Source of the DNA: Desulfobacterales bacterium
GTDB taxonomy: Bacteria > Desulfobacterota > Desulfobacteria > Desulfobacterales > UBA5852
Assembly: GCA_963674755.2 (NCBI GenBank)
Contig: CAXXVS010000002.1
Location: forward strand, 1,664,001 to 1,728,000
Length of the DNA stretch: 64,000 nucleotides
Direction: 5' to 3'
Below the pieces are notes generated by a model. The model did not search any database, had not been told where the DNA came from, and was given only the letters and a program-made list of their open reading frames with translations. Positions 15,821 through 56,096 of the stretch are shown piece after piece. Position 1 is the first letter of the stretch. Each line of letters begins with the position of its first letter. The position numbers and the translations under genes are program-made.

Positions 15821-15943
15821 GACGGCTTCGTAAAACGTTCAAGATCAAGGCGCACAAGCGCCGAGGAGCGAGGCGTACATCAGTACGCCGCAACGACGAG
15901 AAGCGCAGGGCAACGCAGATATTGGGCGTTTTACGAAGCCGTC
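15821..15943 (-). repeat. Stop-codon-anchored hairpin element, family A, copy 1
   Basis: 17-bp perfect terminal IR GACGGCTTCGTAAAACG; ATCAAGGCG and CAACGCAGATAT motifs; overlaps the potC stop. Confidence 0.9.
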
Positions 15944-16796
15944 ACTCTTGTTTGCGGCTGAAGTATAGATTGATTACCGCCGCCAGCGACGTCCCCACGA
16001 TCAGCAGAAAGGAGATGGCGTTGATCACCGGGGTGCTGCCGTCGCGCACCTGGAGGTAGAGGTTGATGGGCAGGGTCGTTTCCGATCCGGTCAGAAACAG
16101 GGTGGTGTTGAAGTTTTCAAAGGACATCAGGAAGGCCACCGCGGCCGCGCCCACGATGGCCGGGCGCAGGAACTTCAGGGTGATGTGCCAGATGACCTCG
16201 AAGCGGTTGGCCCCCAGGTTCAGGGCGGCCTCCTCCAGGGTGCGGTCGAACTTGCGCAGCCGGGCCGAGACCACCAGGGTCACCAAGGTGGCGATAAAGG
16301 AAAACTGCCCCAGCACCACCAGCCAGAATCCGGGGCGGAAGAGGGGCACGTCGATGCCCCAGGTGTCCTCGAAATAGAGCCCCAGGGTATTGGAGAAGAG
16401 CAGGATGGAGATGCCCAGGATCACGCCCGGGATCACCAGGGGGGAGAGCATCAGAAAATAGAGGGCGCCCTTGAAGGGGAATTCTTCCTGCTCGAAGAGA
16501 AAGGACGCGCAGGTGCCCACCGTGACCGAGAGCAGGGTCACGAAAAAGGCCACCCGGGCGCTGACCCAGATGCTCTCCAGATTCATGCTGTCGTGAAAGA
16601 TGCCCACCCGGTTGGGCAAATCCCCCGTGAACCACTCCAGGGTAAACCCCTTCCAGGGCAGGGCCGGAAACTGGGAGTCGTTGAAGGCCAGCACGCAGGT
16701 CACCACCAGGGGGGCGAAAAGAAACGCGAAGTACAGCCCCATATAGAGCTTGTAGCTGTACAGATAACGCCGGCTGTTGGGAAGCGATCGGATCAT
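15942..16796 (-). CDS. potC: Spermidine/putrescine ABC transporter permease
   Basis: EAA motif LEEAALNLGA, hydrophobic segments; ATGA overlap with potB. Confidence 0.9.
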   Translation of the reverse strand: MIRSLPNSRRYLYSYKLYMGLYFAFLFAPLVVTCVLAFNDSQFPALPWKGFTLEWFTGDLPNRVGIFHDSMNLESIWVSARVAFFVTLLSVTVGTCASFLFEQEEFPFKGALYFLMLSPLVIPGVILGISILLFSNTLGLYFEDTWGIDVPLFRPGFWLVVLGQFSFIATLVTLVVSARLRKFDRTLEEAALNLGANRFEVIWHITLKFLRPAIVGAAAVAFLMSFENFNTTLFLTGSETTLPINLYLQVRDGSTPVINAISFLLIVGTSLAAVINLYFSRKQE

Positions 16797-17655
16797 TGCA
16801 CCACCCGACTCAGTTTCTGTCCGGAAAGTTTCAGCCCTACCCAGATGACCAGGGACGACAGGACCAGGAGCAGGAAGCCGAAGGCCGAGCCCTGGTTCCA
16901 GTTGAAGCTGGCGATGAACTGGTTGTAGATCTGCTCCGTGAACCACAGGGAGTTCTTGCCGCCCATGAGGTTCGGGGTAAGATAGTTGCCCAGGGTCAGC
17001 ATGAAGACCACGATGGAGCCGGACACGATCCCCGGCATGGCATGGGGAATCACGATGCGCAGAAAGATGGTGCCCATGTTGGCCCCCAGGTCGTAGGCCG
17101 CCTCGATCAGGCTGTCATCCAGGCTCTCCAGCACCGACACCAGGGGTACGGCCATGAAGAGCATGGAGGTGTAGACCAGGCCATGATCATGGTGGCGTCG
17201 TTGTAGAGCATCTCCACGGGGTGTTTGAGCAGTCCCAGCTGGACCAGGAAATGGTTGAGCACCCCGCTTTCCCGCAGCAGGATCATCCACCCGTAGACCC
17301 GTACCAATTCGCTCACCCAGAAGGGCATCAGCAGCAGCATCATGAGGAAGCCCTGAAAACGGGGGGCCACCACTTTGGTAATATAGAAGGCCACCGGCAT
17401 GGTCACGATGAAGGTCATCACGGTCACCAGGATGGAATAGACCGCCGTGCGCACAAAGGTCAGCCAGTAGATGGGCTCTTTAAAAAAATTCAGGTAGTTG
17501 CCGAAGCCCCAGGACTTGTGGCCGCTTATGTCTTCGGTGCGCAGGGACATGCCCAGCAGGTCGATGTGGGGCAGCACGATCAGCAGCACCAGCCAGAGCA
17601 GGACCGGCGTCAGGAAGCAAATCAGGGGCAGCGAGATCCGGAAGCGGCCTTTCAT
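16793..17655 (-). pseudogene. potB: Spermidine/putrescine ABC permease with a 1-bp frameshift (pseudogene or sequencing error)
   Basis: N-terminal half in ORF 17107..17655 and C-terminal half (GLVYTSMLF..LIEAAYDLGA) in ORF 16793..17290; adding one C at 17181 joins them. Confidence 0.88.
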
Positions 17656-18746
17656 GGGGCCTCCCCGGCGGCAAAACAGATCCCGGACTGGGGGTCCCAG
17701 CCCACTTCGATCCTGTCGTCCCGGCGGATATAGTCGAACTGCCGGTTCTGGGGCAGGGCGATGAGCAGCTCGGTGTCGCCGTTCACCGGATGGACCAGCA
17801 GGCGGCTGTTGGCCCCGTCGAAAAGCAGGGACTTCACGATCACCTCGAAGCGGTTGAGGTGGGCCGCGTCGGTTCCCGGCTGGATGATCATGGCTTCCGG
17901 GCGCAGAAAAAGTTCCACTTTAGCGCCCGTTTGCAGCGGTTCGGTGGCCCGGCTTTTGAAGATGCGGCCGGAAGCGGTTTCAATCTCCACCGTCCCCTCC
18001 TCCCAACGGCGCACCACGCCGTACCAGGCGTTGTTCTCCCCCACGAAGCGGGCCACAAAGGGCGTGCGCGGATGGCGGTAGAGATTCTGGGGGGTGTCCA
18101 CCTGCTCGAAGCGTCCCTTGTTCATGACGGCCACATGGTCGGACATGACCAGGGCTTCGGACTGGTCGTGGGTGATGTAGACGAAGGTCGTACCCACCTG
18201 GGCCTGGAGCTTTTTAAGCTCCACCTTCATCTGCTCCCGCAGTTTGAGATCCAGGGCGCCCAGGGGTTCGTCCAGCAGAAGCACGGCCGGCTCCAGCACC
18301 AGACAGCGGGCAATGGCCACCCGCTGTCGCTGCCCGCCGGAGAGCTGGTCCACGGCCTTGTCCTCGAAGCCCGGCAGATCCACCCGCTCCAGGATGCGGG
18401 TCACCTTGCGCTGGATATCGGCGCGCTTCTCCCGGCGGCGCTGGAGCCCGAAGGCGATGTTCTGGGCCACCGTCATCATGGGAAACAGGGCCAGGTGCTG
18501 GAAGATGAGGTTGACCGGACGCCGGTTGGGCGCCACTCCGGCCATGTCGGTCCCCCGGATCATAATGGCGCCCCGGGAGGGCTCGGTAAACCCGGCAATC
18601 ATCCGCAGCAGGGTCGTTTTGCCGCAGCCCGATGGTCCCAGAATGGAGAAAAACTGCCCCTGGAGCACCTCGAAACTCACGTCATCCACGGCCGTGAATT
18701 CCCCGAAGGTCTTGGTCACCTGTTGAACGGATAGATCGGTCTGCAT
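17652..18746 (-). CDS. potA: Spermidine/putrescine ABC transporter ATP-binding protein
   Basis: GPSGCGKTT, LSGGQRQR, LLLDEPLGALD, THDQSEA, C-terminal TOBE-like region. Confidence 0.93.
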   Translation of the reverse strand: MQTDLSVQQVTKTFGEFTAVDDVSFEVLQGQFFSILGPSGCGKTTLLRMIAGFTEPSRGAIMIRGTDMAGVAPNRRPVNLIFQHLALFPMMTVAQNIAFGLQRRREKRADIQRKVTRILERVDLPGFEDKAVDQLSGGQRQRVAIARCLVLEPAVLLLDEPLGALDLKLREQMKVELKKLQAQVGTTFVYITHDQSEALVMSDHVAVMNKGRFEQVDTPQNLYRHPRTPFVARFVGENNAWYGVVRRWEEGTVEIETASGRIFKSRATEPLQTGAKVELFLRPEAMIIQPGTDAAHLNRFEVIVKSLLFDGANSRLLVHPVNGDTELLIALPQNRQFDYIRRDDRIEVGWDPQSGICFAAGEAP

Positions 18747-18867
18747 AACATCTTTCAAAAAAGCGAAATGCCCTTCCGGGACAAAAAAGCATTTCCACAG
18801 AAATAAAAGCTTAGATAGATTCCAAGCGTAAGGGCAAAAATCGCAGTTTATGTTCTGGTTTACAGAT

Positions 18868-19058
18868 CCCTTTGTCCCGCGCCGAGCATCGGCGATGTGG
18901 CCGGATAAAAGCGCGCGGACCTGTTTGAGTCCCGCCGTAGCCTTGGCGAAGGCGGGGCGAGTTTCCGCGTGCTCCGGCCACAGCGACGACGCGCAGGATA
19001 GAGCGGGACACGGGCGTCTTCTTTTGGTTACTTTTCTTCCGCGCGGAAGAAAAGTAAC
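18868..19058 (+). repeat. Structured repeat family B, copy 2
   Basis: Nested stems TGTCCCGC/GCGGGACA and TGTGGCCGGA/TCCGGCCACA, shared core, terminal GTTACTTTTCTTCCG/CGGAAGAAAAGTAAC. Confidence 0.9.
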
Positions 19059-19168
19059 GGACTAAATAATGCAACCAGCTGCAACAATGAAACGTTATCA
19101 AAGCAGAGAGATGCGGGGACCGCTGCGAAACCAGGCCCCCGCATCCGTCATCTTCCATGATCACAGCC

Positions 19169-20236
19169 TTATTGTGCCGCCTTGACCTTGTCCAGGATCT
19201 TGCCTTCGATCTCCTCCAGTTTGGCCGGCACCGGCGGATACCACTTGATGTTGTCGATATCCGCTTCCGTAAAGCTGCGGGTGAAGTTATCCTTCACCGC
19301 CGGCTCGCAGAGCTGGATGGCGCCCTTGGAGGCCGTGCCGTATTTTTCGGCGTTGGTGAACACGGCCGCATTCTCCGGCCGCAGGACGAAATTGATCCAC
19401 TTGTAGGCGGCGGACACGTTCTTGGCCTTGGCCGGGATGGCGAAGGTGTCGATCCATCCCAGGGCGCCGCTCTTGGGGGCCACGAAATCGATGTCCGGAT
19501 TTTCTGCATGAAGCTTCCAGCCGCCGTTGTCCCAGGCCATGGCCACATAGACTTCCCCCGAACGCATGCTCTGGAGCAGAGCGTCGCCGTTGGCCCAATA
19601 GGTCTTAACGATGGGTTTGCCGGCGATCAGCTTCTGGCCGACCTCTTCCATGAGGGCTTTATAAGCCACGGGATCGCTGTAAAGGGCGAAGGGATCCTTG
19701 CCCATCGAAAAGGCGATGGCGATCAAGGTGGGGCGTTTCAGGCGGTAGCTGACCCGGCCCGTGTACTTGGGATCGAGCAGCGCGGTGTAGTCCTTGGCAT
19801 CCGGCGCGTACTTCTTGTTCACGATCAGGCCGGAGGTGCCGTAGACATGGGGTATGCCATAGCTCTTGCCGTCCACCAGGGTGTTCTTCTTCACGGCTTC
19901 CAGCATGGAGGCCACGATCTGCCCGGTCTTGAGCTGGCTGTAGTCGATGGGCTGGTAGATCTTGAACTCGGCCTGCACCGAGGAAATGCGGTCCTGGCTG
20001 GGCTGGGCCAGGTCGAACCCGGCCCCGCGGGTGGCCCGCAGCTTGGCGATCATCTCTTCGTTGTTGGAGTAGGTCGGTTTCACTTCGATGCCGGTTTCGG
20101 CCTGGAATTTATCGATCAGCGCCTTGGGCGCATAGCCTTTCCAGGTCAGCAGTTCCAGGGTTTCGGCCCCGACCGGCGCCACGATCAGTGCCAGGAAGGC
20201 GCCCAATACCATCAGACAAACGAGTGTACGCTTCAT
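19169..20236 (-). CDS. potD: Polyamine ABC transporter substrate-binding protein (PotD/PotF family)
   Basis: Signal peptide, LTWKGY, YSNNEEMIAKL, WIDTFAIP, WINFVLRPE; GGAGG RBS. Confidence 0.9.
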   Translation of the reverse strand: MKRTLVCLMVLGAFLALIVAPVGAETLELLTWKGYAPKALIDKFQAETGIEVKPTYSNNEEMIAKLRATRGAGFDLAQPSQDRISSVQAEFKIYQPIDYSQLKTGQIVASMLEAVKKNTLVDGKSYGIPHVYGTSGLIVNKKYAPDAKDYTALLDPKYTGRVSYRLKRPTLIAIAFSMGKDPFALYSDPVAYKALMEEVGQKLIAGKPIVKTYWANGDALLQSMRSGEVYVAMAWDNGGWKLHAENPDIDFVAPKSGALGWIDTFAIPAKAKNVSAAYKWINFVLRPENAAVFTNAEKYGTASKGAIQLCEPAVKDNFTRSFTEADIDNIKWYPPVPAKLEEIEGKILDKVKAAQ

Positions 20237-20349
20237 TTCCTCTCCTCCTTGCATAGGGGTTGGTTATATAACATGCGAAAACCGTCCGGCCGTGCGGCCA
20301 AGCATGAAAGCGACCGTTTAGCCGGTTTATGTTAAGCCTTTGTGAGCCC

Positions 20350-21219: not shown

Positions 21220-21246
21220 AGAACTCCCTTCAGGTCGTCCAGGCTC

Positions 21247-22050: not shown

Positions 22051-22334
22051 GGAATCCACATGAAAGTTGTCTGTCCGCAAAAGGTGGGACGCGATTAACA
22101 CCACTTCAATAGCGGACTTGCCCCCGGTTTGGCAAGACATAGAATCGGCGTTCGCCACGATTCAGCCGACCTGCTGAAATTCCTTTGAAATCTCACCGAT
22201 GAAATGGGAAAAAGCACCCCGGGCGAGGCCGCGCATGGGTCTCAGAAGTCACCTTGCCCGTCGATTGTCCAAAACCGGCAACTATGATATGGGCAGGCCA
22301 TCTGAAACGCATTCCATCCTCACAGGAGAACCCC

Positions 22335-23714
22335 ATGGCGGAACTCAAAGGCATGTTGACGCTGGCGCAGCTCGGTAATCTGGCCCGGGAAAATGTCATC
22401 CATACGGTTCAGGTGGTCTTCACGGATCTCTACGGCCGTTTTCTGGGTAAACGCATCGACGTGGATTTCTTCCTGGACCAGGTGGCCGAACACGGCACCC
22501 ACGCCTGCAACTACCTGCTCACCGTGGACATGGAAATGGAGCCCGTCCCGGGCTATGATTTTGCCAACTGGGAAAAGGGCTACGGTGATTTTCACCTGGT
22601 GCCCGATCTGGCCACCCTGCGGGTCACGAGCTGGCTGGAGGGTACGGCCCTGGTCATCTGCGACGTCCACCATGTCGACCGCCACGCGCCGGTCATGCAG
22701 GCCCCGCGCTCCCTGCTGCAGGCCCGAATCCAGGACGCCACGCAGATGGGGTTTGCCCCCATGGTGGGTTCGGAACTGGAGTACTACATTTTTGAAGACA
22801 ACTACCGCGATGCGTCCGAGAAGGGCTATGCCGGGCTGCAGCCGGCCGGCTGGTACCTGGAAGATTATCACATGCTCCAGGGCAGCCGGGAAGAATCCTT
22901 CAATGCGGCCGTGCGCCGCCATCTGAAGGCCTCCGGCATCCCGGTGGAGTGTTCCAAGGGGGAATGGGGCCTCGGCCAGCACGAAATCAACGTCCAATAC
23001 AGTGACGCCCTGCAGATGGCCGACCGCCACGGCGTCTTCAAACAGTGCCTGCGGGAAGTGGCCGACCAGCAGGGGCGCAGCATCACCTTCATGGCCAAGT
23101 TCGCCACGGACCAGGCCGGCTCCAGCTGCCACTTGCATGTCAGCCTGCAAAAAGACGGCCGTAATGCCTTTGCCGGGCAGGAGACCTTCGGCCCGGTGCA
23201 ATGCTCGCCCGAGTTCAAATGGTTTTTAGGGGGCTGGCTGGCCCACGTACCCGAGTGCATGGTCTTCTATGCCCCCACCATCAACGCCTACAAACGCTAC
23301 CAGACCGGGTCCTGGGCCCCGACCCGCATCGCCTGGAGTCACGACAACCGCACGGCCGGCTTCCGGGTGGTGGGCAGCGGCGAGAGCCTGCGCATCGAGT
23401 GCCGCATCCCGGGGGCGGACTGCAACCCCTACCTGGCCTTTGCGGCCGCCATCGCCTCGGGCCTGGACGGCATCCGCAACCACATCGAACCCCCGGCCAT
23501 TTTCGAAGGCGACATGTACGCCGCCCAGGATCTGCCCGGTGTCCCCGCCACCCTGCGGGATGCCATCGCCTCCTTCGAGGGCAGCGAGTGGCAGAAATCC
23601 CTGTTGGGGGAAGCGGTGGTCCGCCATTACACCCACTTCTTCCAGGTCGAGCAGACCGCCTACGACCAGGCCGTTACCGACTGGGAGCGCAGGCGCTATT
23701 TCGAAAGAATATAG
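22335..23714 (+). CDS. Glutamine synthetase family protein (gamma-glutamyl-amine ligase/PuuA-like)
   Basis: ELEYY, EWGLGQHE, TFMAK, GSSCHLH, DNRT..FR, RIECRIPGADCNPY; AGGAG RBS. Confidence 0.9.
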   Translation: MAELKGMLTLAQLGNLARENVIHTVQVVFTDLYGRFLGKRIDVDFFLDQVAEHGTHACNYLLTVDMEMEPVPGYDFANWEKGYGDFHLVPDLATLRVTSWLEGTALVICDVHHVDRHAPVMQAPRSLLQARIQDATQMGFAPMVGSELEYYIFEDNYRDASEKGYAGLQPAGWYLEDYHMLQGSREESFNAAVRRHLKASGIPVECSKGEWGLGQHEINVQYSDALQMADRHGVFKQCLREVADQQGRSITFMAKFATDQAGSSCHLHVSLQKDGRNAFAGQETFGPVQCSPEFKWFLGGWLAHVPECMVFYAPTINAYKRYQTGSWAPTRIAWSHDNRTAGFRVVGSGESLRIECRIPGADCNPYLAFAAAIASGLDGIRNHIEPPAIFEGDMYAAQDLPGVPATLRDAIASFEGSEWQKSLLGEAVVRHYTHFFQVEQTAYDQAVTDWERRRYFERI

Positions 23715-23936
23715 AGAAGCAATCCCAAAAAAGTCTTTTCGCCCGATCCGCCAGAGGCGGACAAGTCTCGGCGTTGAAGCCTCGTCTTAAGTCCTCGACA
23801 TTCATGCATCCGCATGCCGTATGCCTGCGGGCACCCCCCATTGCTGATTTCATCAGATGGGAAGTCCCGCTTTACGGGAATGAGACTCGGCTTCGCCTTG
23901 ATCTCGAACGAAAATCCAATTTTTAGCATCGCTTCT
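23715..23936 (+). repeat. Family A hairpin element, copy 2 (expanded, with nested small REP-like hairpins)
   Basis: Begins right after the TAG stop; AGAAGC...GCTTCT arms, GGCGTTG and CGCCTTGATC motifs; nested TCCGCCAGAGGCGGA and TCCCGCTTTACGGGA. Confidence 0.8.
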
Positions 23937-24036
23937 GGCTAAGTCTCTGTTTCGTTTGGGGGAAACCCCATGGTGTGCGACGTGCCCGGCGGCAAACGAG
24001 AAATGATTACAGGCAATAGCGGTAGTCTGCTTAATT

Positions 24037-24234
24037 CCCTTTGTCACGAGGCCTGCGCAGCGGGGTTGCGGACGAGAAAGGCGCGGCGACTGTCTGAGCC
24101 CTGCCGTAGCCTTGGCGAAGGCGGGGCGAGTTTCGGCGCGTCCGGCCGCAAACCCGATGTGCAGGCGGTCCCGAAGGGCTCGTGACAGGGCGCCTTCTTT
24201 TGGTTACTTTTCTTCCGCGGGGAAGAAAAGTAAC
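24037..24234 (+). repeat. Structured repeat family B, copy 3
   Basis: TGTCACGA/TCGTGACA outer stem, shared core, terminal GTTACTTTTCTTCC/GGAAGAAAAGTAAC. Confidence 0.9.
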
Positions 24235-26391: not shown

Positions 26392-27526
26392 CAGGACCGA
26401 TCCGGCCGCCGTCGAGCTGGAGACCCTGCGGCAAGCCATCGACGCCATCGACCACGACATAGTGGCCCTCCTCAAGGCGCGCCAGGAACAGGTGGACCGT
26501 GTGCTGGCCCTCAAGCGGGCCCACGGCCTGCCGGTCTACCATCCGTCCCGGGAGGAAAACCTGATCTCGGAAAAACGACGTACGGCGCGCGCCGTCGGTT
26601 TGGACCCGGATTTCCTGGAAGACCTTTTCCGACGGATCCTGCGGCAATCACGCGTCGAACAAACCGCCCAGTTGGCCCGCCGGGGCACCAAACCGGGCGC
26701 CCGCATCCTCCTGGTAGGGGGCGCCGGCGCCATGGGGCGTTATCTGCAGCGCTGGTTCAGGGAGGCCGGCTACACGGTTCGCCTTCTGGAACGCGAGGAC
26801 TGGGATCGCGCCGCCGTCCTGTGCGACGGCATTGCCCTGGCCCTGCTGAGCGTGCCGATCGGCCAGACGGCCGCAGTGGCCCGTCGCCTGGCCCCCCATC
26901 TGCCGCCGGATTGCCTCCTGGGCGATGTCACCAGCCTGAAGGCGGCGCCCCTGGAGGCCATGCTGGCTGCCCATCCCGGGCCGGTGGTGGGCCTGCACCC
27001 CCTGTTCGGCCCGGCCACGACTTCCCTGGACAAGCAGGTGGTCATCACCACCCCCGGACGCCGCCCGGCAGATTGCCAGTGGTTGCTGGACCAGTTTGCG
27101 GATTGGGGCGCCATCGTGATCCAGGCCGATCCGCTGGAGCACGACGAGGCCATGGACGTTATCCAGGCCCTGCGGCATTTTGCGGCCTTCACTTTCGGCA
27201 AATTTTTGTTCGAACGCCGGGTGGCCCTGGATCGGACCCTGGACTTTTCCAGCCCCATCTACCGCCTCGAACTGGGCATGGTGGGACGGCTGTTCGCCCA
27301 GGATCCGGCCCTGTATTCGGAAATCATCCTGGCCACCCCCGGCCGCCGACAGCTCCTGCGGGACTATCTGGCCTCCCTGGGGGACAGCCTGGCCTTATTC
27401 GAAACCGGGGACAAGGCGGCTTTTGAAGCGCTTTTCCGCGAGATCGCCGCCTGGTTCGACCCCTTCAGCGGGCAGGCGTTGCGGGAGACGACCTATCTAA
27501 TAGACAAGCTCATCGAGCGCTTCTGA
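26372..27526 (+). CDS. tyrA: Bifunctional chorismate mutase/prephenate dehydrogenase
   Basis: N-terminal AroQ (LRQAIDAID..REE), GGAGAMG Rossmann, DVTSLK, GLHPLFGP, EHDEAM, SSPIYRLELGMVGRLFAQDP. Confidence 0.93.
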   Translation: MKKEPPDRTDPAAVELETLRQAIDAIDHDIVALLKARQEQVDRVLALKRAHGLPVYHPSREENLISEKRRTARAVGLDPDFLEDLFRRILRQSRVEQTAQLARRGTKPGARILLVGGAGAMGRYLQRWFREAGYTVRLLEREDWDRAAVLCDGIALALLSVPIGQTAAVARRLAPHLPPDCLLGDVTSLKAAPLEAMLAAHPGPVVGLHPLFGPATTSLDKQVVITTPGRRPADCQWLLDQFADWGAIVIQADPLEHDEAMDVIQALRHFAAFTFGKFLFERRVALDRTLDFSSPIYRLELGMVGRLFAQDPALYSEIILATPGRRQLLRDYLASLGDSLALFETGDKAAFEALFREIAAWFDPFSGQALRETTYLIDKLIERF

Positions 27527-27652
27527 GCCGGTGGCGTAGAATGGCCGATATCGGCGTTGTGCGGCGCCATTCGGCGTTGCGGCGTACCTGGTGTACGCCT
27601 CGCTTCTCAAGGCTTGCACGCCTTGATCTCGACCATTCTACGCCACCGGCTC
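27525..27652 (+). repeat. Family A hairpin element, copy 3
   Basis: 20-bp perfect terminal IR GAGCCGGTGGCGTAGAATGG, overlapping the tyrA TGA; ATATCGGCGTTG and CGCCTTGATC motifs. Confidence 0.9.
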
Positions 27653-27870: not shown

Positions 27871-29094
27871 TCAAAATTCGACGTAAACCTTATTTTGCAT
27901 GTCGGGTTCTATGGTTTCAAAATCGATAAAAAGATGTGTTGAACAGATATCCGTGGCAGCGACATAGGCGGTGGCGGTCCCGTTGGCTTCGATCCATTTT
28001 ATCCGTGGTCGTCCCCGAAGCCTCAGGGCAACTGTCAGTCCGCCTTGAATTGGTTCCCCGCCGTAAAAGGCGAACCCAAGGTCGAGAGAATGATCGTTTT
28101 CCATTTTTCGGTAGGGTGCGATGCTGCCGAAAATATGGCGCTGTTCCCAGATTTCCCGCCTTGAAGCGCGTCGTATCGCCGAAGTTTCTCCCCGAGGGCG
28201 TATGGAGGCTTGAAAATCACCTATTATAATCCGGTTGGGATAACCCGGGTAGTATTCCCACGGAAAGACGGCGTTGCCGGTTTCAAGAAGGGCGGCAATG
28301 GCTGCAACTCCGCTTTCAGCCGCTTCTTGGGGACTGAGGACAAAATGATTGACTTCGATGCCGAAGGTCAGGGAATGGAACGCATCGTAGAAAATCTGGT
28401 TGACATGGTTGTTGAAAGCCCCTTCGGCAAGCGTTGCCGCTTTATTTTTCAGGCTTCGGTAGAATTCGATGGTATGCAGGAGGAAAGGATAGCCTTTTTG
28501 GGCTGCTCCCTGGACCATTTTGTCTGCCAATGTATGCAAAATATACGGATCTTCCCCGGATCGCGCTGTCTCATCAATGATGACAGCCTCCAACCCTCCC
28601 CAGTTGTAACCGTATTTTTCCTTTCCAACGCTGTGAACGTCCAGGACTAAATCCGGGATGATGGATAGGCCGAATTTGACGACGGATTCTTTTTCGAGAG
28701 CAGAGAGCCGATTCTTGGGAAGCCCAAAGGTTTTAGCTGCGCAACCATCCGGATTGGCGACCGGCACCACAATGACCTGCTGATTTATCAGGACGTCCCT
28801 TGCTTCCGGTGCAGCCAGCCATTCGAGGAGGTGCAGGCCGACAGTGCGGGTGCCGAGTTCATCCCCGTGTCGGCCTATGACGATCAGAACGATCTCCTTG
28901 TTTTGATCTGGATGGGCGGCGCTTGTGACAAGGACTGCTCGGATTTCTTTGCCTTCCTCGGTGTGGCCAATGGTTTCAATCCGAGCGATATCGCTGTTTT
29001 TTTGAGCAAACCGCTCCACCCGATCCCGGATTTCCTGCCATGTTGGAATCGAAACGGGTGACCGTCTATGAAGTAAAGAGTTGCCGGACGTCAT
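27871..29094 (-). CDS. M14 zinc carboxypeptidase/deacylase-like protein with C-terminal extension
   Basis: GRHGDE (HxxE), PVANPDG, LDVHS, GIE; start uncertain. Confidence 0.8.
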   Translation of the reverse strand: MTSGNSLLHRRSPVSIPTWQEIRDRVERFAQKNSDIARIETIGHTEEGKEIRAVLVTSAAHPDQNKEIVLIVIGRHGDELGTRTVGLHLLEWLAAPEARDVLINQQVIVVPVANPDGCAAKTFGLPKNRLSALEKESVVKFGLSIIPDLVLDVHSVGKEKYGYNWGGLEAVIIDETARSGEDPYILHTLADKMVQGAAQKGYPFLLHTIEFYRSLKNKAATLAEGAFNNHVNQIFYDAFHSLTFGIEVNHFVLSPQEAAESGVAAIAALLETGNAVFPWEYYPGYPNRIIIGDFQASIRPRGETSAIRRASRREIWEQRHIFGSIAPYRKMENDHSLDLGFAFYGGEPIQGGLTVALRLRGRPRIKWIEANGTATAYVAATDICSTHLFIDFETIEPDMQNKVYVEF

Positions 29095-30619
29095 TCGTTA
29101 AGACCTTACCCATTCGGTTTTTGGGGATTTCTTCGACAAATTTGACATCTTTCGGGATTTTCCAGGCATGGATATGCTCTCGGCAGTGATGCCGTATTTC
29201 GGAGGCATCAAGTTTCGCACCGGGGCGGCATTTGATGGCGGCAACCACTTTTTCACCCCATTTTTCGTCCGGAAGGCCGACCACGGACGATTCAAGGACA
29301 GCCTCTATCTGGTTGATAACAGTCTCGACTTCTTTGGGCGATATATTCTCGCCTCCGGAAATGATTATGTTTTTGATGCGATCCGTCAGATAGTAATATC
29401 CGTCTTGGTCCACATAGCCAAGATCGCCGGTTTTGAACCAGCTGTCTTCAAATGCCTTGGCGGTCTCCTGGGGTTTTTCCCAATATCCGGGCGTTATGCC
29501 GGGGCCTTTAAGCCAGATTTCCCCGATTTCACCGGATTCGAGTGTGCCGCCGGTTTCCGGAGAGACAATTTTTACGGCAAGTTTCGGCAGGGGCCGTCCA
29601 ATTGACCCTGGTTTTCTGGGGCCATCCAGGGGGTTGGAAAAGTTCATGCCGGTTTCTGACATTCCTTCCCGTTCTACCGGCGCCTTTCCGAAAACCGTTT
29701 TGATCCTCTCGAAGTCTTTTGAAAGAAGCGGAGCCGATCCCGAGGTCCACAACCGAATGTGCTCAAAATCCGGTGTTTTATCTCCAACAGCCTCCAACAT
29801 TTTGACGTACATGGAAGGAACGGCCATGAAAACGGTGCACGCGACGTTCACGTCCTTTCGGGCCAGCGTGTCCAGCACCTGCAAGGGCGTGAACCGATCG
29901 AGCATGACGATTTCTGCCCCGGCCATCAGGGCTGTATGGGTTGCAAAACCGAGGCCGTGGACATGAAACAGTGGAAGTGCATGACAGATGCGATCTGAAC
30001 CGTTGATTTGCCATATATCGATGATGTTTTGGGCGTCATGGACAAGGTTTCCCTGGGTCAGAACTGCACCTTTGGGCTGTCCGGTCGTGCCGGATGTATA
30101 GATGATCGTGGCGGGATCTTCCGGCAGGATATCGACAGGCCGACTTTTGTCACTGAAGGGCCGAAAAAAATCAAGCTTGGCATAGGGTTGATCGGTGTCC
30201 AGAATCTGGTGGTTGAGTTTCGGATTCACAGCGTTGAGGATCTCGGCCTGAGTGACACCGGCGATTATCAGAGACGGGCGCGTGTCCTCTGTCAGATAGG
30301 CCATTTCAGCTTTCAAGAAACCCGGATTTACCGGAACCGAAACAGCACCGATCCGAAGCAGGGACAGATGGGCGATTAAAAAGATGACGGATTTCGGAAG
30401 AAAGAGGATCACCCGATCCCCTTTGCGGATTCCGGCATTCGAAAAATAGCAGGCCATTCGGTTGGTGTCCGCGTCGAGAATTGCGTAGGTTAATTCTGTT
30501 TCAATGCGGCCATCGCGCAAAAAACGCAAAGCTGTTTTATGGGCATTCGACGAAAAACTTGCATCAAAGCAGCCTGTGATACAATCTGTCCCAATTATCG
30601 AAGCCGTCGTTGTTTCCAT
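29066..30619 (-). CDS. Acyl-CoA synthetase (malonyl-CoA synthetase MatB-like)
   Basis: YTSGTTGQPKG, HALPLFHVHGL, SGSAPL, EREGMSETGM, KTGDLG, PKNRMGKV; start 30619 or 30634. Confidence 0.9.
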   Translation of the reverse strand: METTTASIIGTDCITGCFDASFSSNAHKTALRFLRDGRIETELTYAILDADTNRMACYFSNAGIRKGDRVILFLPKSVIFLIAHLSLLRIGAVSVPVNPGFLKAEMAYLTEDTRPSLIIAGVTQAEILNAVNPKLNHQILDTDQPYAKLDFFRPFSDKSRPVDILPEDPATIIYTSGTTGQPKGAVLTQGNLVHDAQNIIDIWQINGSDRICHALPLFHVHGLGFATHTALMAGAEIVMLDRFTPLQVLDTLARKDVNVACTVFMAVPSMYVKMLEAVGDKTPDFEHIRLWTSGSAPLLSKDFERIKTVFGKAPVEREGMSETGMNFSNPLDGPRKPGSIGRPLPKLAVKIVSPETGGTLESGEIGEIWLKGPGITPGYWEKPQETAKAFEDSWFKTGDLGYVDQDGYYYLTDRIKNIIISGGENISPKEVETVINQIEAVLESSVVGLPDEKWGEKVVAAIKCRPGAKLDASEIRHHCREHIHAWKIPKDVKFVEEIPKNRMGKVLTNDVRQLFTS

Positions 30620-30626
30620 TTCCTCA

Positions 30627-31505
30627 TTATCCATCAGCCGTTTCATTGTCATCCAGAACATACATGCTTCCGGAGTTGTTAACGAAAAAGTCGCCGCCGA
30701 ATTCTTGGGCCAGTTTCATTGAGGCGTCGAATCCTGTGCAGTGAGATGCGCCTATTTTCCGAATTCCTATTTCGCGCAGTGCTGCAATTGCCTTTTTTTT
30801 CTGTTCTTCGGTTTTTGGGAAGAGGTGCGTCCCCCCAACGATCGTGTGTACGCTCTGCTCACCCGTGATGTGCTGGGCATGGCGGATCGAATTGATCATT
30901 CCCCGATGAGCGCAGCCGAGAACGATCACAAGCCCTTCCCGGCTGCGAATGATTAAGGCCTGGTCATCAAGGATCGGATCGGGTTGGAACGCCCCGTTTT
31001 TGAGGATGTGAAATATCGGTTCTATTGATTCGAAATCGGTGACCATCGGGATTTCGCCTGTTGTCCAGATGTTTTCCGAAAGCTGGACAGGCTCCCGACT
31101 GAGCTGAAAATGAGCCCCGAGTTGCTCGAGTTGTTTTTTTTCATAGGGGATGCTGATATCGGCGGCGGTGTCTTCGTATGGCCGCCGTGTGTATTTCTCC
31201 TCCCAGATGGCCGGATGGGCGATAACCCGGGTTTCCCCAATTCGCCTGAGCATGGGCGCCAATCCGCCCGTGTGGTCGGCGTGGGCATGGCTGAGAACGA
31301 TGGGGGTACCCGACGGGATTTTAATGCCAAGCCGATCCGCATTGCGGAGCGTGATATCGCTGGCACCGGTGTCAAAAAGGATGGTGCGACCATCGGCCTC
31401 AACGAAAATGCTTAGCCCCCACTCGGCTGCAAATCCTGGCTTGCCTGCCGAGTTTTCACATAATGTCGCCAGTCGAATCTTCAAATCACCAAGCTCCCTT
31501 CGCAT
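30627..31505 (-). CDS. MBL-fold metallo-hydrolase (COG1237-like)
   Basis: AEWGLS, LFDTG, SHAHADHTGG, GCAHRG, GGTHL, SHCTG. Confidence 0.9.
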   Translation of the reverse strand: MRRELGDLKIRLATLCENSAGKPGFAAEWGLSIFVEADGRTILFDTGASDITLRNADRLGIKIPSGTPIVLSHAHADHTGGLAPMLRRIGETRVIAHPAIWEEKYTRRPYEDTAADISIPYEKKQLEQLGAHFQLSREPVQLSENIWTTGEIPMVTDFESIEPIFHILKNGAFQPDPILDDQALIIRSREGLVIVLGCAHRGMINSIRHAQHITGEQSVHTIVGGTHLFPKTEEQKKKAIAALREIGIRKIGASHCTGFDASMKLAQEFGGDFFVNNSGSMYVLDDNETADG

Positions 31506-40459: not shown

Positions 40460-40478
40460 CGCACGACCGCGGCGTTGG

Positions 40479-45592: not shown

Positions 45593-46220
45593 GGGCGGTT
45601 GCGTAAAACGCCCAAAATCAAGGCGTGCAAGCTCGGAGAAGTGAGCGCACCCAGGTGCGCCGCAGCAACGAGAAGCGCCGCACAACGCCGATATTTGTCC
45701 GTCCCAGTGGAGCGGTCGTTTTTTGCAGTGGCATGTGTTGCCTATTTATTTCGTGCACAGGGAGGTTGTGTAAAACGCCCAAAATCAAGGCGTGCAAGCT
45801 CGGAGAAGTGAGGCGCACCCAGGTGCGCCGCAGCGACGAGAAGCGCCGCACAACGCCGATATTTGTCCATCCCAGTGGAGCGGTCGTTTTTTGCAGTGGC
45901 ATGTGTTGCCTATTTATTTCGTGCACAGGGAGGTTGTGTAAAACGCCCAAAATCAAGGCGTGCAAGCTCGGAGAAGTGAGGCGCACCCAGGTGCGCCGCA
46001 GCGACGAGGAGCGCCGCACAACGCCGATATTTGTCCGTCCCAGTGGAGCGGTCGTTTTTTGTAGTGGCATGTGTTGCCTATTTATTTCGTGCACAGGGAG
46101 GTTGTGTAAAACGCCCAAAATCAAGGCGTGCAAGCTCGGAGAAGTGAGGCGCACCCAGGTGCGCCGCAGCGACGAGGAGCGCCGCACAACGCCGAGTTTG
46201 GGCGTTTTACACAACCTCCC
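45593..46220 (-). repeat. Tandem array (168-bp period, about 3.7 units) of family A hairpin element
   Basis: GTAAAACGCCCAAAATCAAGGCG at 45603, 45770, 45938 and 46106; last unit has a 24-bp perfect IR ending in the dctM stop. Confidence 0.95.
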
Positions 46221-48051: not shown

Positions 48052-48055
48052 CCCG

Positions 48056-50637: not shown

Positions 50638-50652
50638 GGCTCGATCCCCTTT

Positions 50653-50862
50653 TTAAGCCTCTGGGCGGATATTGATTCGTTTAGCCATCGATCGCAGGAT
50701 TCGACTCTGCTTCTGGTGCCAAACATAGGCGCTGCGGAACCGGAAAATAAAGTTGCCGCGTTTGCTGCGCATCGCTCTCTGGATCACCCGGCGCCCGGAG
50801 AACGGCTTCTCCCTTCCGCCGGGGATCTCAGCATGCAAATAATCTTTCAGGATAGAAGACAT
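50653..50862 (-). pseudogene. 69-aa fragment resembling the N-terminal helical domain of serine acetyltransferase-like proteins
   Basis: EIPGGREKPFS..RV..R..NFIFRFRSAYVWH..LRSMAKRIN pattern recalled from CysE-like proteins; no hexapeptide repeats follow. Confidence 0.4.
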
Positions 50863-50922
50863 CCAATCGTTGCCCTTTCGACACCCGCCCGGACACCGGG
50901 CAAACCCCGCCGGCCAAGTGCA

Positions 50923-52452: not shown

Positions 52453-52476
52453 GGCAACCTCCTTGCGGCCGGGCGT

Positions 52477-53700
52477 TCACGCCTGTCGTTTCATCAAAAG
52501 GGATACAAAAGTTCCACCCGAAGAAAAGCCGTTCACGAGTCCACAGGTCAGCGGGTGTGCCTGCGGGCGTCCCCGGACAAAGTTCAGCGGCGCCAGGGGC
52601 GTGTCCAGCCCCAGGGTCGGCGGCAGCAAGCCGTCCCTGAGGGAGAGGGCCATGGCGGCCGACCGGACCCCCCCGGACGAAAAGCTTTCCCCGAGAGCGC
52701 CTTTGACGGATCCGATCCGGGGGCCGTCCGGCAATGGGCCGAAAAGACCGGACAGGGCCTCGGCTTCGAGACGATCCAGACGGACGGCGCCATTGGCCGA
52801 AGCGGAGACATAATCCACCTGGCCTGGGGCAAGGCCCGCCCCCTGGAGGGCCCGCTGCATGGCCCGCACGGGCCCCCGTGAATCGTCGGGCCAGTCGGTG
52901 GGCGGTGCCGGCGACGAACTGAGCCCCCACCCGCCGATTTCACAATACGGTGTGGCACCCCGCTGCCGGGCATGGGTCAGGGACTCGAGGCATACGACCC
53001 CGGCACCCTCTCCCACCACAAAACCGTTGCGCCGGCGATCGAAGGGGCGCGCCTCCTCGTCCTCACCTTTCCCCGGCGAGAGGGCCTTGAAATGTGTCAA
53101 AATCTCGAAAAAGAAGGCGGAAAAGATATCGGCCCCGCCGGCCAGCATGACATCGGCCCGCCCGTTCCTGATTTCCGCGGCCGCATAGGCCAGGGCGGTT
53201 TCGGCCGAGGCTTCCCGGTGGTTGACGGTGGCGTTGATGCCCCGGAAGCCGATCTCGATGGCGGCGTGGCCGGCGGGCGCATTCATCACCGTGTTGGGTA
53301 CCAGAATGGGGTTCACCAGACGGGGTCCCTCGGTGAAGAGGGTCTCCATGAACCGGGCGGCCACATCGGTGCTGCCGAATGCCACCCCCAGGATGATCCC
53401 CACCCGATCCCGGTTGGCGGCCGTTATGGTGAGGCCGGCATCCTCCAGGGCCATGCGGGCCGAGGCCGTCGCCATGAGGGAGAGGCGGTCCATGCGCCGC
53501 CGGTTTTTAATGGAAATATGGTCCTTGGGATTGAACCCCTGCGCTTCGGCGCCCAGCCGGGAGGGGAAGCGTGCCGTATCGAAGGCGCTGATCGGCCGGA
53601 TGCCGGAGCGGCCGTCGAAAAGATTCCGGGCAAAGGCCGCCTTGCCGGTGCCCAGAGGCGTTACGACGCCCAGCCCTGTGACCACCACCGGATCAGGCAT
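52477..53700 (-). CDS. Ketosynthase-like chain-length factor (catalytic residues absent)
   Basis: Thiolase fold; catalytic Cys position reads NHREASA, His positions read SASANG and GESFSS. Confidence 0.88.
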   Translation of the reverse strand: MPDPVVVTGLGVVTPLGTGKAAFARNLFDGRSGIRPISAFDTARFPSRLGAEAQGFNPKDHISIKNRRRMDRLSLMATASARMALEDAGLTITAANRDRVGIILGVAFGSTDVAARFMETLFTEGPRLVNPILVPNTVMNAPAGHAAIEIGFRGINATVNHREASAETALAYAAAEIRNGRADVMLAGGADIFSAFFFEILTHFKALSPGKGEDEEARPFDRRRNGFVVGEGAGVVCLESLTHARQRGATPYCEIGGWGLSSSPAPPTDWPDDSRGPVRAMQRALQGAGLAPGQVDYVSASANGAVRLDRLEAEALSGLFGPLPDGPRIGSVKGALGESFSSGGVRSAAMALSLRDGLLPPTLGLDTPLAPLNFVRGRPQAHPLTCGLVNGFSSGGTFVSLLMKRQA

Positions 53701-54940
53701 GGTCCCGGTTCTCCGTCCGGTAACGCCCGATGACGACCGAGGTGTTGTTGCCCCCGAAGGCAAAGGAGTTGGACAACACAATAGCGAGCTCTGTCCGGCG
53801 CGCGCCTTCGGTCACGTAGTCGAGGTCGCAATCCGGATCGGGGGTCGTGAGATGAATCGTGGGCGGTATGAAGCCCCCCGTGATGGCCAGCACCGCGGCG
53901 ACCGCCTCGATGGCCCCGGCCGCGCCCAGGGTGTGGCCGGTCATGGATTTGGTGGAGCTCACGGGAATCGCATAGGCCCGCTCGCCGAAAACCTGTTTGA
54001 TCCCGACGGTCTCCATCCGGTCGTTGGCCGGGGTGGCGGTACCGTGGGCGTTGATGTAATCGACCCGGGACGGCGCGACACCGGCATCTTCCAGGGCCGC
54101 CCGCATGCAACGCACAGCCCCGGAGGCTTCGTGATCAGGGGCGGTCATGTGGTTGGCATCGCAGCTGATGCCGTAGCCCAACAATTCGCCGTGGATCCGG
54201 GCCCCCCGGGCCAGGGCATGCGCTAAAGATTCCAGGACCATCATACCGGCCCCCTCCCCCAGGGACATGCCCGCCCGGTGGCGGTCAAAGGGTTTGCAGT
54301 AGTGCGGGTCCACCGCCTTCAGGGCGTTGAAGGCGGCATAGGTGGTGCGGGCCAGGGGTTCGGCGCCGCCGGCAATCATCACCCGGGCCTGCCCGTCCCT
54401 TATCAGGTCCCGGGCATAGCCCAGCGCCGTGGCCCCGGAGGAACAGGCCGTCATGAAAGTGGTTTTCGGCCCCCCCAGGTTGAGTTTGGAGACGATATGA
54501 TCGGCGGATGAGGCGCAGCAAAACGCCGAAAAAGCGGAGAACCGCACCGCCGCGGCCTTGCCCTGCAGATGCCGGCGGAAAGCGGCCTCGCCTTCCAGCA
54601 TGCCACCGGCCCCGCCGCCCACGGCAACCCCGGTCTCCTCCCGCAAATCCCCGGGGAGAGGAAGGAGACCGGCATCCTGCAAGGCTTCCAGGGCCGCCGC
54701 CATGGCCATGACATCCGAACGGGACATACGTTTGCCGTAAAGGGCTTCGGGAATGGTCTCGTGGGGTGAAAAATCCCGGATCTCGCCGCCCGTGCGGGTC
54801 GGAAACCCTGTGGTATCAAACACCGTGATCGGACCGATGCCGCAGCGCCCCGCCTGCAGAGCGGCTGCAAAAGCGGGCGCCGTGCGGGCGACGGCATTGA
54901 CGGTTCCCAGCCCTGTGATGACAACACGCCTGCTTTCCAT
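53693..54940 (-). CDS. Beta-ketoacyl-ACP synthase (FabF-like / type II PKS KS)
   Basis: TACSSG, AHGTAT, GHTLGAAG, SNSFAFGG. Confidence 0.95.
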   Translation of the reverse strand: MESRRVVITGLGTVNAVARTAPAFAAALQAGRCGIGPITVFDTTGFPTRTGGEIRDFSPHETIPEALYGKRMSRSDVMAMAAALEALQDAGLLPLPGDLREETGVAVGGGAGGMLEGEAAFRRHLQGKAAAVRFSAFSAFCCASSADHIVSKLNLGGPKTTFMTACSSGATALGYARDLIRDGQARVMIAGGAEPLARTTYAAFNALKAVDPHYCKPFDRHRAGMSLGEGAGMMVLESLAHALARGARIHGELLGYGISCDANHMTAPDHEASGAVRCMRAALEDAGVAPSRVDYINAHGTATPANDRMETVGIKQVFGERAYAIPVSSTKSMTGHTLGAAGAIEAVAAVLAITGGFIPPTIHLTTPDPDCDLDYVTEGARRTELAIVLSNSFAFGGNNTSVVIGRYRTENRDHA

Positions 54941-55286
54941 CGCTGCAGCGCCTTCCGCCTTCGATTTCGGTTGTGTTGTGGGTACGGCGGCATATGCCGG
55001 CCAGAGAAGCAACTGAAAGGGCCTCCGGGCCGCTTCCGGATGGCGGCGCCATCTCCCCGGCCGGGATGTCCGGTTGGAACTAACAAGTGGTCATGAAGGT
55101 GTCAAGCAGGGAAGCTGGTCATGCCTGTCTTTACAGGAATTGATAACGGTCGCGCGATAAGGCTGGTCGCCACGATGCCCATTGAAACAAGTTGACAACG
55201 CAAGGCCCCAAGACATAGGATTGACAGGTCATTGCGATGACCAGCCGACATTCCTTTCCGAACAACCTGTTTGACAGGATCTCCCC

Positions 55287-55709
55287 ATGCACGATCTGGA
55301 CATCGACACCCTCGTACCCCATCGCCGCCCTATGCGGTTGGTCGACGAAATCCTGGCTGTCGACGAGCATTCCGCCACCACCACCGCTACCGTGACGCCG
55401 GCTTGGCCGTCCTTCGCCGCCGGGGCGGTCAGCGCCCTGCTCACGATCGAGCTCGTCGCCCAGACGGCCGCCGTGATCGGCGGCTACAAAGCCCTCAGCG
55501 CGCCTTCCCCTACCAAAGTCCGCACGGGCATGCTGGTGGGCATCAAACAGGCCGATTTCCGGGTGGACGTCCTGCCGGCCGGAACCCGCCTCGTAATCCG
55601 GGCCACAACCCATCCCATTCTTGAAAATTTCAAAGAAATCAAAGGCGTTGTTGAAATTGACGACCGGATCGTCTGCGAGATGATCCTGCAGGGCGTCCAG
55701 TCCGCATGA
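55287..55709 (+). CDS. Hotdog-fold 3-hydroxyacyl-ACP dehydratase (ApeP-like)
   Basis: VPHRRPMRLVD, IELVAQT, GMLVGI. Confidence 0.82.
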   Translation: MHDLDIDTLVPHRRPMRLVDEILAVDEHSATTTATVTPAWPSFAAGAVSALLTIELVAQTAAVIGGYKALSAPSPTKVRTGMLVGIKQADFRVDVLPAGTRLVIRATTHPILENFKEIKGVVEIDDRIVCEMILQGVQSA

Positions 55710-55763
55710 ACCACTTTTGGTCCCCGGCCACAGCCCATCCTATGGCGGGCGGCGAATATAAGG

Positions 55764-55781
55764 GTGTGCATATTCTGACAC
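55764..55781. promoter_or_regulatory. Candidate EBP enhancer site
   Basis: GTGTGCATATTCTGACAC imperfect palindrome about 110-125 bp upstream of the sigma54 promoter, followed by an AT-rich IHF-like tract. Confidence 0.4.
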
Positions 55782-55888
55782 CCCGCGTCAACGATTCTGC
55801 CACCATCATCCCCTGCCCCAGCACCAGCGCTGACGCTAAAATTCTATATCTAATTGTTATCATTATAAATATTGATTTTTATAAAAAA

Positions 55889-55904
55889 TGGCACATAGTT
55901 TGCT
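55889..55904 (+). promoter_or_regulatory. Sigma54 (-24/-12) promoter
   Basis: TGGCAC-ATAGT-TTGCT, exact consensus. Confidence 0.9.
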
Positions 55905-55914
55905 AAAATCTCAT

Positions 55915-55970
55915 GCAGACCATCTTTTCTCCCTCCTCTTAGGGGCAAGGCATAGGGCCTTGCCCCTTTT
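55915..55970 (+). ncRNA. Candidate sigma54-dependent small RNA (~56 nt) with anti-SD seed
   Basis: Promoter, then CCATCTTTTCTCCCTCCTCT, then terminator AGGGGCAAGGC-ATAGG-GCCTTGCCCCTTTT; no credible ORF. Confidence 0.72.
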
Positions 55971-55976
55971 ACTTTG

Positions 55977-56096
55977 GACGGCGTCGTAAAAGGCTCAATA
56001 TCAGCGTTGTGCTTCATCGGCGTTGTGCTTCATTTCTCGTCAGGCCTCCTCATCGAAATTCGCTCGCCTTGATCTTGAGCCTTTTACGACGCCCTC
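55977..56096 (+). repeat. Family A hairpin element, copy 5
   Basis: GGCGTCGTAAAAGGCTCAA / TTGAGCCTTTTACGACGCC perfect IR; ATATCAGCGTTG and CGCCTTGATC motifs; internal duplication of GCGTTGTGCTTCAT. Confidence 0.88.

Follow-up and report, generated by a model that had tools for sequence, protein, structure and literature searches.

Five hairpin-forming loci lying between positions 15,821 and 56,096 of a window of 64,000 nucleotides (the whole stretch of DNA analysed) from a Desulfobacterales bacterium (GenBank assembly GCA_963674755.2, contig CAXXVS010000002.1, positions 1,664,001 to 1,728,000) belong to a dispersed family of short repeats. Reciprocal covariance-model matches indicate that the ~85-nt core of these repeats is homologous to ERIC, so far treated as a miniature inverted-repeat transposable element (MITE) of enterobacteria and vibrios and found here, in several phyla, between the ends of other transposase families. 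As judged from its ends, which are the terminal repeats of an insertion sequence (IS) resident in the same genome, subfamily A of the family is a MITE and therefore not an attC or RAYT site. The data are probably best explained by an ERIC-type core carried as a MITE, with subfamily A moved in trans by the transposase of this IS1182-like element, oriented by the replication fork and retained at stop codons. As a MITE, the element is ordinary; the greater interest lies in its core, which on this evidence is old, widespread, strand-specific and independent of the ends that enclose it.

A dispersed family of intergenic hairpins

Three iterated profile hidden Markov models (E 0.01 or better) gave 346 matches at 286 loci of the genome and none in the reversed genome. 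The repeat is short, non-coding, multicopy and intergenic, 1/286 loci lying inside a called open reading frame (genes were called by a custom hexamer model, which yielded 5348 genes and 78% coding sequence and missed some genes). With ~290 sites per genome, such repeats are readily mistaken for small RNAs during annotation. Among the 235 near-full copies, 8 are singletons and the others fall into six clusters, each with 13–66 copies, which are named A, B, C (three clusters) and D. All subfamilies share a common plan (arm, GCGTT, stem, central hairpin, stem, GCCTT, arm), and the repeat was found in 12/12 genomes of the genus. The view that these hairpins are chance inverted repeats or ordinary terminators, for which the position of one window copy 3' of a terminator-like hairpin could be invoked, has practically no chance of being correct: it is already refuted by the 346 matches against 0 in the reversed genome, by target duplications and empty sites and by homology across phyla. 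Hereafter, G000 designates the genome of the window, C1–C3 its contigs and G004 the relative with which it was compared.

Split copies were considered as possible autonomous versions and rejected. The one clear case is a subfamily C element (G000 C2:1572912-1575295) whose tip contains a 2.2-kb two-gene IS, probably IS21-like and present in four genomic copies, the other cases being deletions or nested inserts. Genes flanked by copies on both sides, as well as genes between close pairs in other genomes, resemble ordinary host genes by eye.

Ends of subfamily A and the resident IS1182-like element

A search for repeated DNA in the genome revealed a 1.89-kb IS whose four copies are 98–100% identical, end with GATGG-N3-CGTAAAAA and, in 3/4 cases, are flanked by an exact 6-bp duplication. 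Its 582-aa protein, whose frame is open in 3/4 copies, carries the DUF772 and DDE_Tnp_1_6 domains, and the residues D151, D359 and E484, invariant in 8 transposase sequences, would constitute its catalytic acidic triad. The best NCBIfam match of this transposase is IS1182 (NF033551, 38–487 of 488 positions aligned). Relatives of the element were found in 15/61 genomes. In 80 metagenomic IS loci, 77 and 71 ends led to the consensus GATG(G/A)-N3-CGTAAAAAGTC; both ends were available for 69 loci, a duplication being visible in 23 of them (6 bp in 17/23) and in none of the other 46.

The arms of subfamily A are the terminal inverted repeats of this element, and both share the same type of 6-bp target duplication, A-N4-T; the left end of subfamily A is even identical to the IS end of a relative (L049). 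The young copy of subfamily A measures 151 bp and comprises, in this order, a left repeat, the core, a second copy of the left repeat placed inside and inverted, a spacer of 8 nt and an outer repeat on the right. An outer repeat together with an exact duplication was observed at C3:1714584 and C3:1322236 (6 bp) and at C1:900062 (7 bp), and the comparison of empty and filled sites showed that the latter site is cleanly empty in G004, with a single copy of the target. Among 57 A-type copies from other genomes, the duplication at the outer end is exact in 11 and near-exact in 11. The outer end has been lost in most G000 copies, including all those of the window.

An earlier note on the window, made from its letters, had compared the loci with integron attC sites and with HUH- or RAYT-recognized hairpins, and it had itself set the fixed terminal repeats of a known IS or MITE against this reading. 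Such repeats, those of the resident IS1182-like element, are what bounds subfamily A. The more general part of its proposal, i.e. a non-autonomous mobile element depending on an enzyme encoded elsewhere, is supported. In one and the same genome, a 151-bp element whose ends are intact coexists with a transposase that matches it and is apparently intact. The transposase of the IS1182-like element is the likely agent of the transfer of subfamily A in trans. The same ends also enclose another cargo of ~132 bp, a REP-like doublet of GTCA(C/T)TCCCGCG-type hairpins. Copies of this REP-like cargo were noticed at G000 C1:852183, C1:866587, C3:1542407, C3:2348204 and C3:2490367 and in L075.

Subfamilies B, C and D

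The other subfamilies have TA-type ends. In subfamily C, an exact 6-bp TA-N2-TA duplication flanks 10/68 copies versus 0.7 in shuffles; in subfamily B, TA is found at both sides at a frequency that is not above that of shuffles. Across the family, 25/58 comparable loci are empty in G004. The genome harbours three copies of an IS5-family element (G000 C3:2485559, C3:1413921 and C2:1227598; NF033578, above cut-off), all of which (3/3) are flanked by a 6-bp TA-N2-TA duplication, the same target type as that of subfamily C. This element was rejected as the partner of the TA-flanked subfamilies, because its ends match just loosely, and it was found in 4/151 genomes; other DUF772 elements were rejected because their ends differ.

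The core and its homology to ERIC

A single interrupted hairpin (92% of cells paired) is formed by 31 A cores on the CAAGGCG strand; in it, 13/28 pairs are changed on both sides (0/500 shuffles as high; slid controls, 21–44%), these counts of covariation being inflated by relatedness among the sequences. The unpaired bases are also conserved: AA in 31/31 and AAC in 29/31 cores, and three G·A tandems in 25, 23 and 25 of 31. The AA bulge (31/31 aligned cores), the G·A mismatch (26/31 cores) and the bias of G·T pairs to the CAAGGCG strand had all been recognized in the earlier note. In 27 aligned ERIC copies, the same features were found (24 have AA and 21 have AAC, and the three GA/GA tandems are present in 16, 21 and 27), and ERIC and the A cores share a TAC-loop-GTA tip.

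When a covariance model built from A cores only was run on 52 kb of E. coli loci, ERIC copies were the top 6 of 12 matches, aligned over their full length and on the strand that was expected (best E 6e-8), 6/17 loci being matched at the ERIC position. With strict filters, this model gave no match in the whole E. coli chromosome; the matches were obtained with filters off in selected loci. Conversely, A cores were the top 6 of 17 matches of an ERIC-only model in the window, 15/20 A cores were matched, and the five matches of this model in the whole genome are all family members (3 catalogued, 2 judged by eye). The E-values of these models are rough, since calibration was short. Together, these matches identify the ~85-nt core as a homologue of ERIC, which the earlier note had missed. 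A further subfamily with an ERIC-type GA/GA tip, partly outside the catalogue (G000 C2:138459, C2:617097, C3:659908 and C3:753110; L078), gives the best matches of the ERIC-only model. Two viral contigs, L153 and L156, hold intermediates that combine an ERIC central hairpin with non-ERIC arms; in L156, the tip is that of ERIC and the flanks are A-like.

The core is not restricted to the genus. The A model matches 44/121 genomes of the phylum, and a pattern scan, of which 80 of 124 matches were listed, retrieved records from Desulfobacterota, NC10, Rokubacteria, Gemmatimonadota, Acidobacteriota, Nitrospirota and Rhodothermales. Among the matches listed, at least five end types were distinguished by eye, several of them with the same doubled right end. 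The same core lying between differing ends, it has become associated with several kinds of ends, some of which belong to unrelated transposase families; its conservation while ends are exchanged implies that the core does something of its own, and its presence between different transposon ends across groups suggests a strand-specific role.

The five loci of the window

The five loci described in the earlier note are real, with the boundaries that it gave them. Four of them were folded against shuffles, 23715-23936 being left out, and all four fold better on both strands (z = -5.7 to -10.2; 0/200 shuffles as good). The loci and their parts are as follows:

15821..15943, minus strand: subfamily A hairpin, classed as a MITE, 123 bp; the TGA (15944-15942) that ends a potC-like ABC permease gene takes its GA from the left terminal repeat
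15840..15924, plus strand: core judged homologous to ERIC, structured CAAGGCG strand; ranked first in the window by the ERIC-only model (E 1.1e-4)
23715..23936, plus strand: subfamily B element with TA-type ends, abutting the TAG (23712-23714) of a glutamine-synthetase-like gene
23748..23765, plus strand: nested small hairpin insert at the left core edge, ends by eye; motif in or beside 82/346 copies and common elsewhere in the genome
23832..23879, plus strand: nested ~48-nt insert 3' of the central hairpin, ends by eye; 49/346 copies
27525..27652, plus strand: subfamily A hairpin with arms rewritten yet paired, at the tyrA TGA (27524-27526)
27546..27631, minus strand: core judged homologous to ERIC, structured strand, from the covariance model
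46097..46219, minus strand: subfamily A hairpin, array unit 1, directly 3' of the dctM TAG (46222-46220)
45593..46096, minus strand: three more tandem units (core, right arm and spacer) without intact left arm; cores 45948-46032, 45780-45864 and 45613-45696
55941..55967, plus strand: terminator-like hairpin just 5' of the fifth copy (context)
55977..56096, plus strand: degenerate copy of subfamily A, which has lost its central hairpin and in which the left part of the core is duplicated

As the note had indicated, four copies begin in or beside the stop codons of genes that encode, according to Pfam, an ABC permease, a glutamine-synthetase-like protein, a chorismate mutase/prephenate dehydrogenase and DctM, the fifth lies 3' of the terminator-like hairpin 55941-55967, and all five have one orientation, the sense strand being GCGTT...GCCTTG. 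The note had considered that the loci share only short internal motifs, which understates their relationship. Four of them share the whole ~85-nt core and a terminal consensus GA(C/T)GG-N3-CGTAAAA, the mean column identity being 82% over 31 cores, and 23715-23936 is a member of B, a sister subfamily with ends of the TA type, and contains two nested inserts. Locus 45593-46220 is an array of four units with a period of 168/168/167. Concerning Rfam, a search of the window gave one chance match and 10 further loci gave none near the gathering score.

At least five small inserts occur at fixed positions of the elements; four are nearly confined to them (49, 24, 6 and 3 copies) and one is common elsewhere. 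For the ~48-nt insert 23832..23879, 33/34 exact genomic matches of the motif fall inside elements. Such fixed-position inserts (e.g. 23748-23765 and 23832-23879) look like a second layer of tiny mobile hairpins targeting the core.

Orientation relative to replication and to stop codons

The anchoring at stop codons that was proposed from the window holds for its four loci and, genome-wide, for a part of the family. In 87/245 full-length copies, the position of the left end relative to a sense stop falls between -3 and +4 nt; this holds for the right end in 7/245, versus 1.9–4.3% for matching target sites in empty intergenic gaps. The peaks correspond to positions where the element end completes the stop, i.e. 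T|GA in subfamily A and TA|G in subfamilies B, C and D. As either end could supply a stop, this supply does not explain the orientation. Protein truncation as the origin of the anchoring was not seen: in 4/4 stop sites that are empty in G004, a native stop is present at the same codon.

Away from stops, another rule applies, which the earlier note had also missed. With the leading strand assigned from GC skew, 102/139 loci (102:37) have their GCGTT strand collinear with it regardless of local transcription, as have 26/30 loci of subfamily A. At stops, 54/87 copies are collinear with it, which is near the 54% of genes located on the leading strand. Both rules of orientation are direct observations. 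Of the 14 copies that are flanked by a perfect duplication, 13 follow the leading strand and none is located at a stop. Furthermore, loci at stops are more often filled in G004 than the others (14/18 vs 19/40, p 0.045; 58 loci comparable, ~1.7 Mb of that genome). The tyrA site (27525..27652) is filled in 8/12 and empty in 4/12 genomes.

Alternatively, stop-anchored copies would be domesticated 3' mRNA elements involved in processing or stability in connection with termination, positive selection alone accounting for their position, orientation and core conservation. The tyrA site is kept in a clade of 8 genomes with 76–93% protein identity; at stops, the core diverges less than the arms (0.11 vs 0.28–0.30 in subfamily C); in phage contigs, the element completes TGA in 8/14 family loci, from few related phages; and, in E. 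coli, the orientation seen here is shared by five ERIC copies located no more than 6 nt from a stop. Effects of ERIC on mRNA that depend on its orientation are also reported in Yersinia, according to the summaries given in PMC2229807 and PMC3049150. However, three E. coli copies located 8–13 nt from a stop have the opposite orientation, cores are similarly conserved away from stops (divergence between G000 and G004 of 0.15 vs 0.14 at stops), and the mRNA carries the worse-folding strand, in which the mismatches are A·C. A function at the mRNA level alone fits the retention and not the strand of the fold, and we regard it as quite improbable that such a function accounts for the whole pattern.

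Phage copies of subfamily A (L329-L336, L342 and L343) were seen at tight gene junctions, e.g. before a terminase-like gene (named by eye). In some of them, the target duplication restores the downstream ATG and the left end supplies the upstream TGA.

Strand bias and rewriting of the arms

In 219 copies, the arm mismatches include 749 G·T on the CAAGGCG strand and 169 on the other strand, and the bias is retained in copies without a sense stop nearby (185:41). Many of these mismatches are inherited from subfamily ancestors; when only departures from the consensus are considered, the bias away from stops is kept in subfamilies B–D (84:51) and absent in subfamily A (13:10), whereas at stops it is kept in both. 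The CAAGGCG strand folds better in 217/234 copies as RNA and in 208 as DNA. Covariation, G·T bias and better folding thus agree with the earlier proposal of a structure kept on the bottom strand, the single-strand aspect of which survives for the core only. Since the better-folding strand is absent from the mRNA at stops, selection for mRNA hairpins does not explain the bias. The replication-strand bias and the G·A tandems present on one strand point to the strand of interest.

The arms are self-complementary and differ between copies, as had been noticed: genome-wide, pairing with the own arm reaches 0.73–0.75 versus 0.59–0.62 with arms swapped. Part of these differences comes from the variable N3 of the IS end, the remainder being mirrored change. 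Arms at least 25% off the consensus yet at least 85% paired were found in 34 copies, 25/34 being located at stops (p 1e-6). Between G000 and G004 (20 pairs), arms differ at 23–25% of sites and cores at 14–15%, and mirrored changes between orthologues occur in bursts of up to 7 or are absent. A copying of the arms from host DNA was rejected, as the arms keep the trace of the terminal repeat; even the most diverged rewritten arms are like it at 7–9 of 16 positions. Adjacent copies are arranged in the same direction in 54 cases, tail-to-tail in 6 and head-to-head in 0. Two genomes carry different subfamilies at the same stop, and in G004, new copies lie in front of older ones at the potC and glnA-like stops. 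A rolling-circle origin of the arrays was rejected as unneeded, unequal exchange between stacked copies being sufficient.

In a different explanation, the core would itself be what moves, as a hairpin of single-stranded DNA on which an enzyme of HUH, recombinase or host type would act. The core would insert opposite exposed single strands (the lagging-strand template, or the non-template strand past a stop), its right arm would be made by copying whatever is present on its left side, and IS ends would be landing sites enabling later movement by transposases. This would account for the association of a single core with numerous end types (frequently, the left end recurs inside in inverted form and the outer end is separate), for the strand-specific covariation with 13/28 pairs changed on both sides (0/500 shuffles) and the G·A tandems shared with ERIC, and for the occupation of the same stop by different subfamilies in two genomes. 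It would also fit the pairing of A copies at stops, which extends 1.08 nt into the flank versus 0.36 expected, and the replication bias of 102:37, which has the same sense as that of the attC bottom strands in sedentary integrons, most of which lie on the template of the leading strand (25/30, in a passage of PMC5371416). By contrast, empty and filled sites show that a whole end-to-end unit moves with a duplication typical of staggered cuts, the rewritten arms resemble the terminal repeat (7–9 of 16) and not host DNA, no Y1 or reverse transcriptase gene flanks any copy, and 15 E. coli ERIC copies display no replication bias (8:7, relative to the origin and terminus). This explanation is rather improbable, while deserving some weight.

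A proposed course from insertion to retention

In the preferred explanation, fresh insertions would be oriented by the replication fork and would land at AT-rich targets. Copies landing in a native stop with the weaker-folding strand in the mRNA would be retained longer, probably because the element now supplies the stop and the opposite orientation would place a stronger hairpin under the terminating ribosome. New copies would stack beside old ones and their cores would recombine, generating arrays, to which locus 45593-46220 would correspond, and swaps of subfamilies at one stop. Copying of blocks from one arm to the other would restore their match. Other DDE transposases would serve subfamilies B, C and D.

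Several data weigh against this scheme. The transposase scores 134.9 bits with the IS1182 model, below the cut-off of 270, hence the name 'IS1182-like'; it was found in 4/12 genomes of the genus, most of these genomes being fragmented, versus 12/12 for the repeat. The core was found inside none of 29 + 80 IS loci, 2 matches falling outside the IS ends, so that it is a cargo and not a remnant or deletion product of these IS. A DDE transposase needs no fold of one strand. Comparison with the resident IS5 and with other DUF772 elements revealed no cognate IS with B, C or D ends. Concerning orientation, that of the IS1182-like element in relatives is mixed (5 lagging, 4 leading and 1 ambiguous, from 20-kb skew), and in a passage of Gómez et al. 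(PMC3971601), IS1182 is placed among the families that are biased in few or no chromosomes. At stops, near-intact C copies (one mismatch allowed) are found in 6/30 cases, which fits some targeting, and antisense copies occur at the null rate and not below it, so that purging alone does not explain the pattern. Finally, in stop-anchored copies, G·T wobbles among departures from the consensus favour the strand absent from the mRNA (13:4 in subfamily A and 46:16 in B–D).

A broader proposal, possible but doubtful, is that ERIC would be one branch of a cross-phylum, strand-specific single-stranded DNA module, recognizable by the AA and AAC bulges, the three G·A tandems and the TAC/GTA tip, and coupled to unrelated transposase ends (IS630, IS1182-like, IS5-like and more). 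A factor of the cell or of a mobile element would read this module, orient it relative to forks and stops and rewrite its arms by fold-back copying.

Relationships with known systems

ERIC, also known as IRU and represented by MITEEc1, MITEPlu5 and MITEYpe1 in enterobacteria and vibrios, resembles the family by its homologous ~85-nt core as found with the reciprocal models, with its AA and AAC bulges, G·A tandems and tip, as well as by its size, its intergenic location near gene ends and, for subfamilies B–D, its TA ends. Nested inserts are found at fixed sites in ERIC too. It differs from subfamily A, which has IS1182-like ends, a 6-bp duplication and a doubled right end, and from subfamily C, which has a 6-bp TA-N2-TA duplication. 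The hosts also differ, the core described here being found in Desulfobacterales and, among the matches listed, in NC10, Rokubacteria, Gemmatimonadota, Acidobacteriota and Nitrospirota. ERIC ends resemble those of IS630-type transposons with TA duplication, according to a passage of PMC6267812, and movement of ERIC is without experimental support in a 2007 review (PMC2229807). Our literature search, whose reach excluded the original ERIC papers and ISfinder, found no paper that connects the ERIC core with these phyla or with ends of the IS1182 or IS5 type.

IS1182-family IS and MITEs have in common with subfamily A the terminal repeat and the A-N4-T 6-bp duplication of the resident DUF772/DDE element. 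Unlike in usual members, the inner sequence is not derived from the IS, the same ends enclose a second cargo and the transposase is under the curated cut-off. Subfamily C may already have been catalogued as short RNAs in Geobacter: the Figure S1 legend of a 2009 paper (PMC2700814), on which the comparison is based, describes RNAs with a central palindrome like that of subfamily C and with relatives in other Geobacter species and Desulfotalea. They differ in being presented in this legend as RNAs of unknown function, with no link to ERIC or to IS ends.

The resemblance to integron attC sites and to REP/RAYT systems is limited to a way of working, i.e. a selected fold on one strand with conserved unpaired or extrahelical bases, this strand belonging mostly, as in sedentary attC arrays (PMC5371416), to the template of the leading strand. 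Unlike attC sites, the repeat is dispersed after housekeeping genes, it has IS-type bounds and target duplications, and it forms no cassette array. REP/RAYT insertion is not known to produce a target duplication, whereas duplications of 6–7 bp are found here, and no Y1 gene adjoins the copies. Indeed, a search for Y1/RAYT and tyrosine recombinase genes flanked by the hairpins found no convincing one: none of the 13 Y1_Tnp and 3 reverse transcriptase matches of the genome lies within 2.6 kb of a copy (2.7 kb for the nearest Y1_Tnp), and 16 of the 17 tyrosine-recombinase matches are at least 2.6 kb from a copy, the other one being a short fragment located 374 bp away. Seven long Y1_Tnp matches (frames of 275–354 aa; G000 C1:626392, C1:916428, C1:1285484, C2:1644746, C2:1885907, C3:764779 and C3:1282460) are RAYT-like by length.

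Other features of the window

A second dispersed repeat family is present at 24030-24200 of the window. It starts with AATTCCCTTTGTC, includes GACTGTCTGAG and carries its own nested small hairpin. Repeats of the AATTCCCTTTGTC type also occur in the flank of G000 C1:308453 and after tyrA in L005-L007, and they often adjoin ERIC-like copies. Region 27871-31500 contains long open reading frames with very low codon-usage scores in the hexamer gene model and possibly corresponds to recently acquired DNA.

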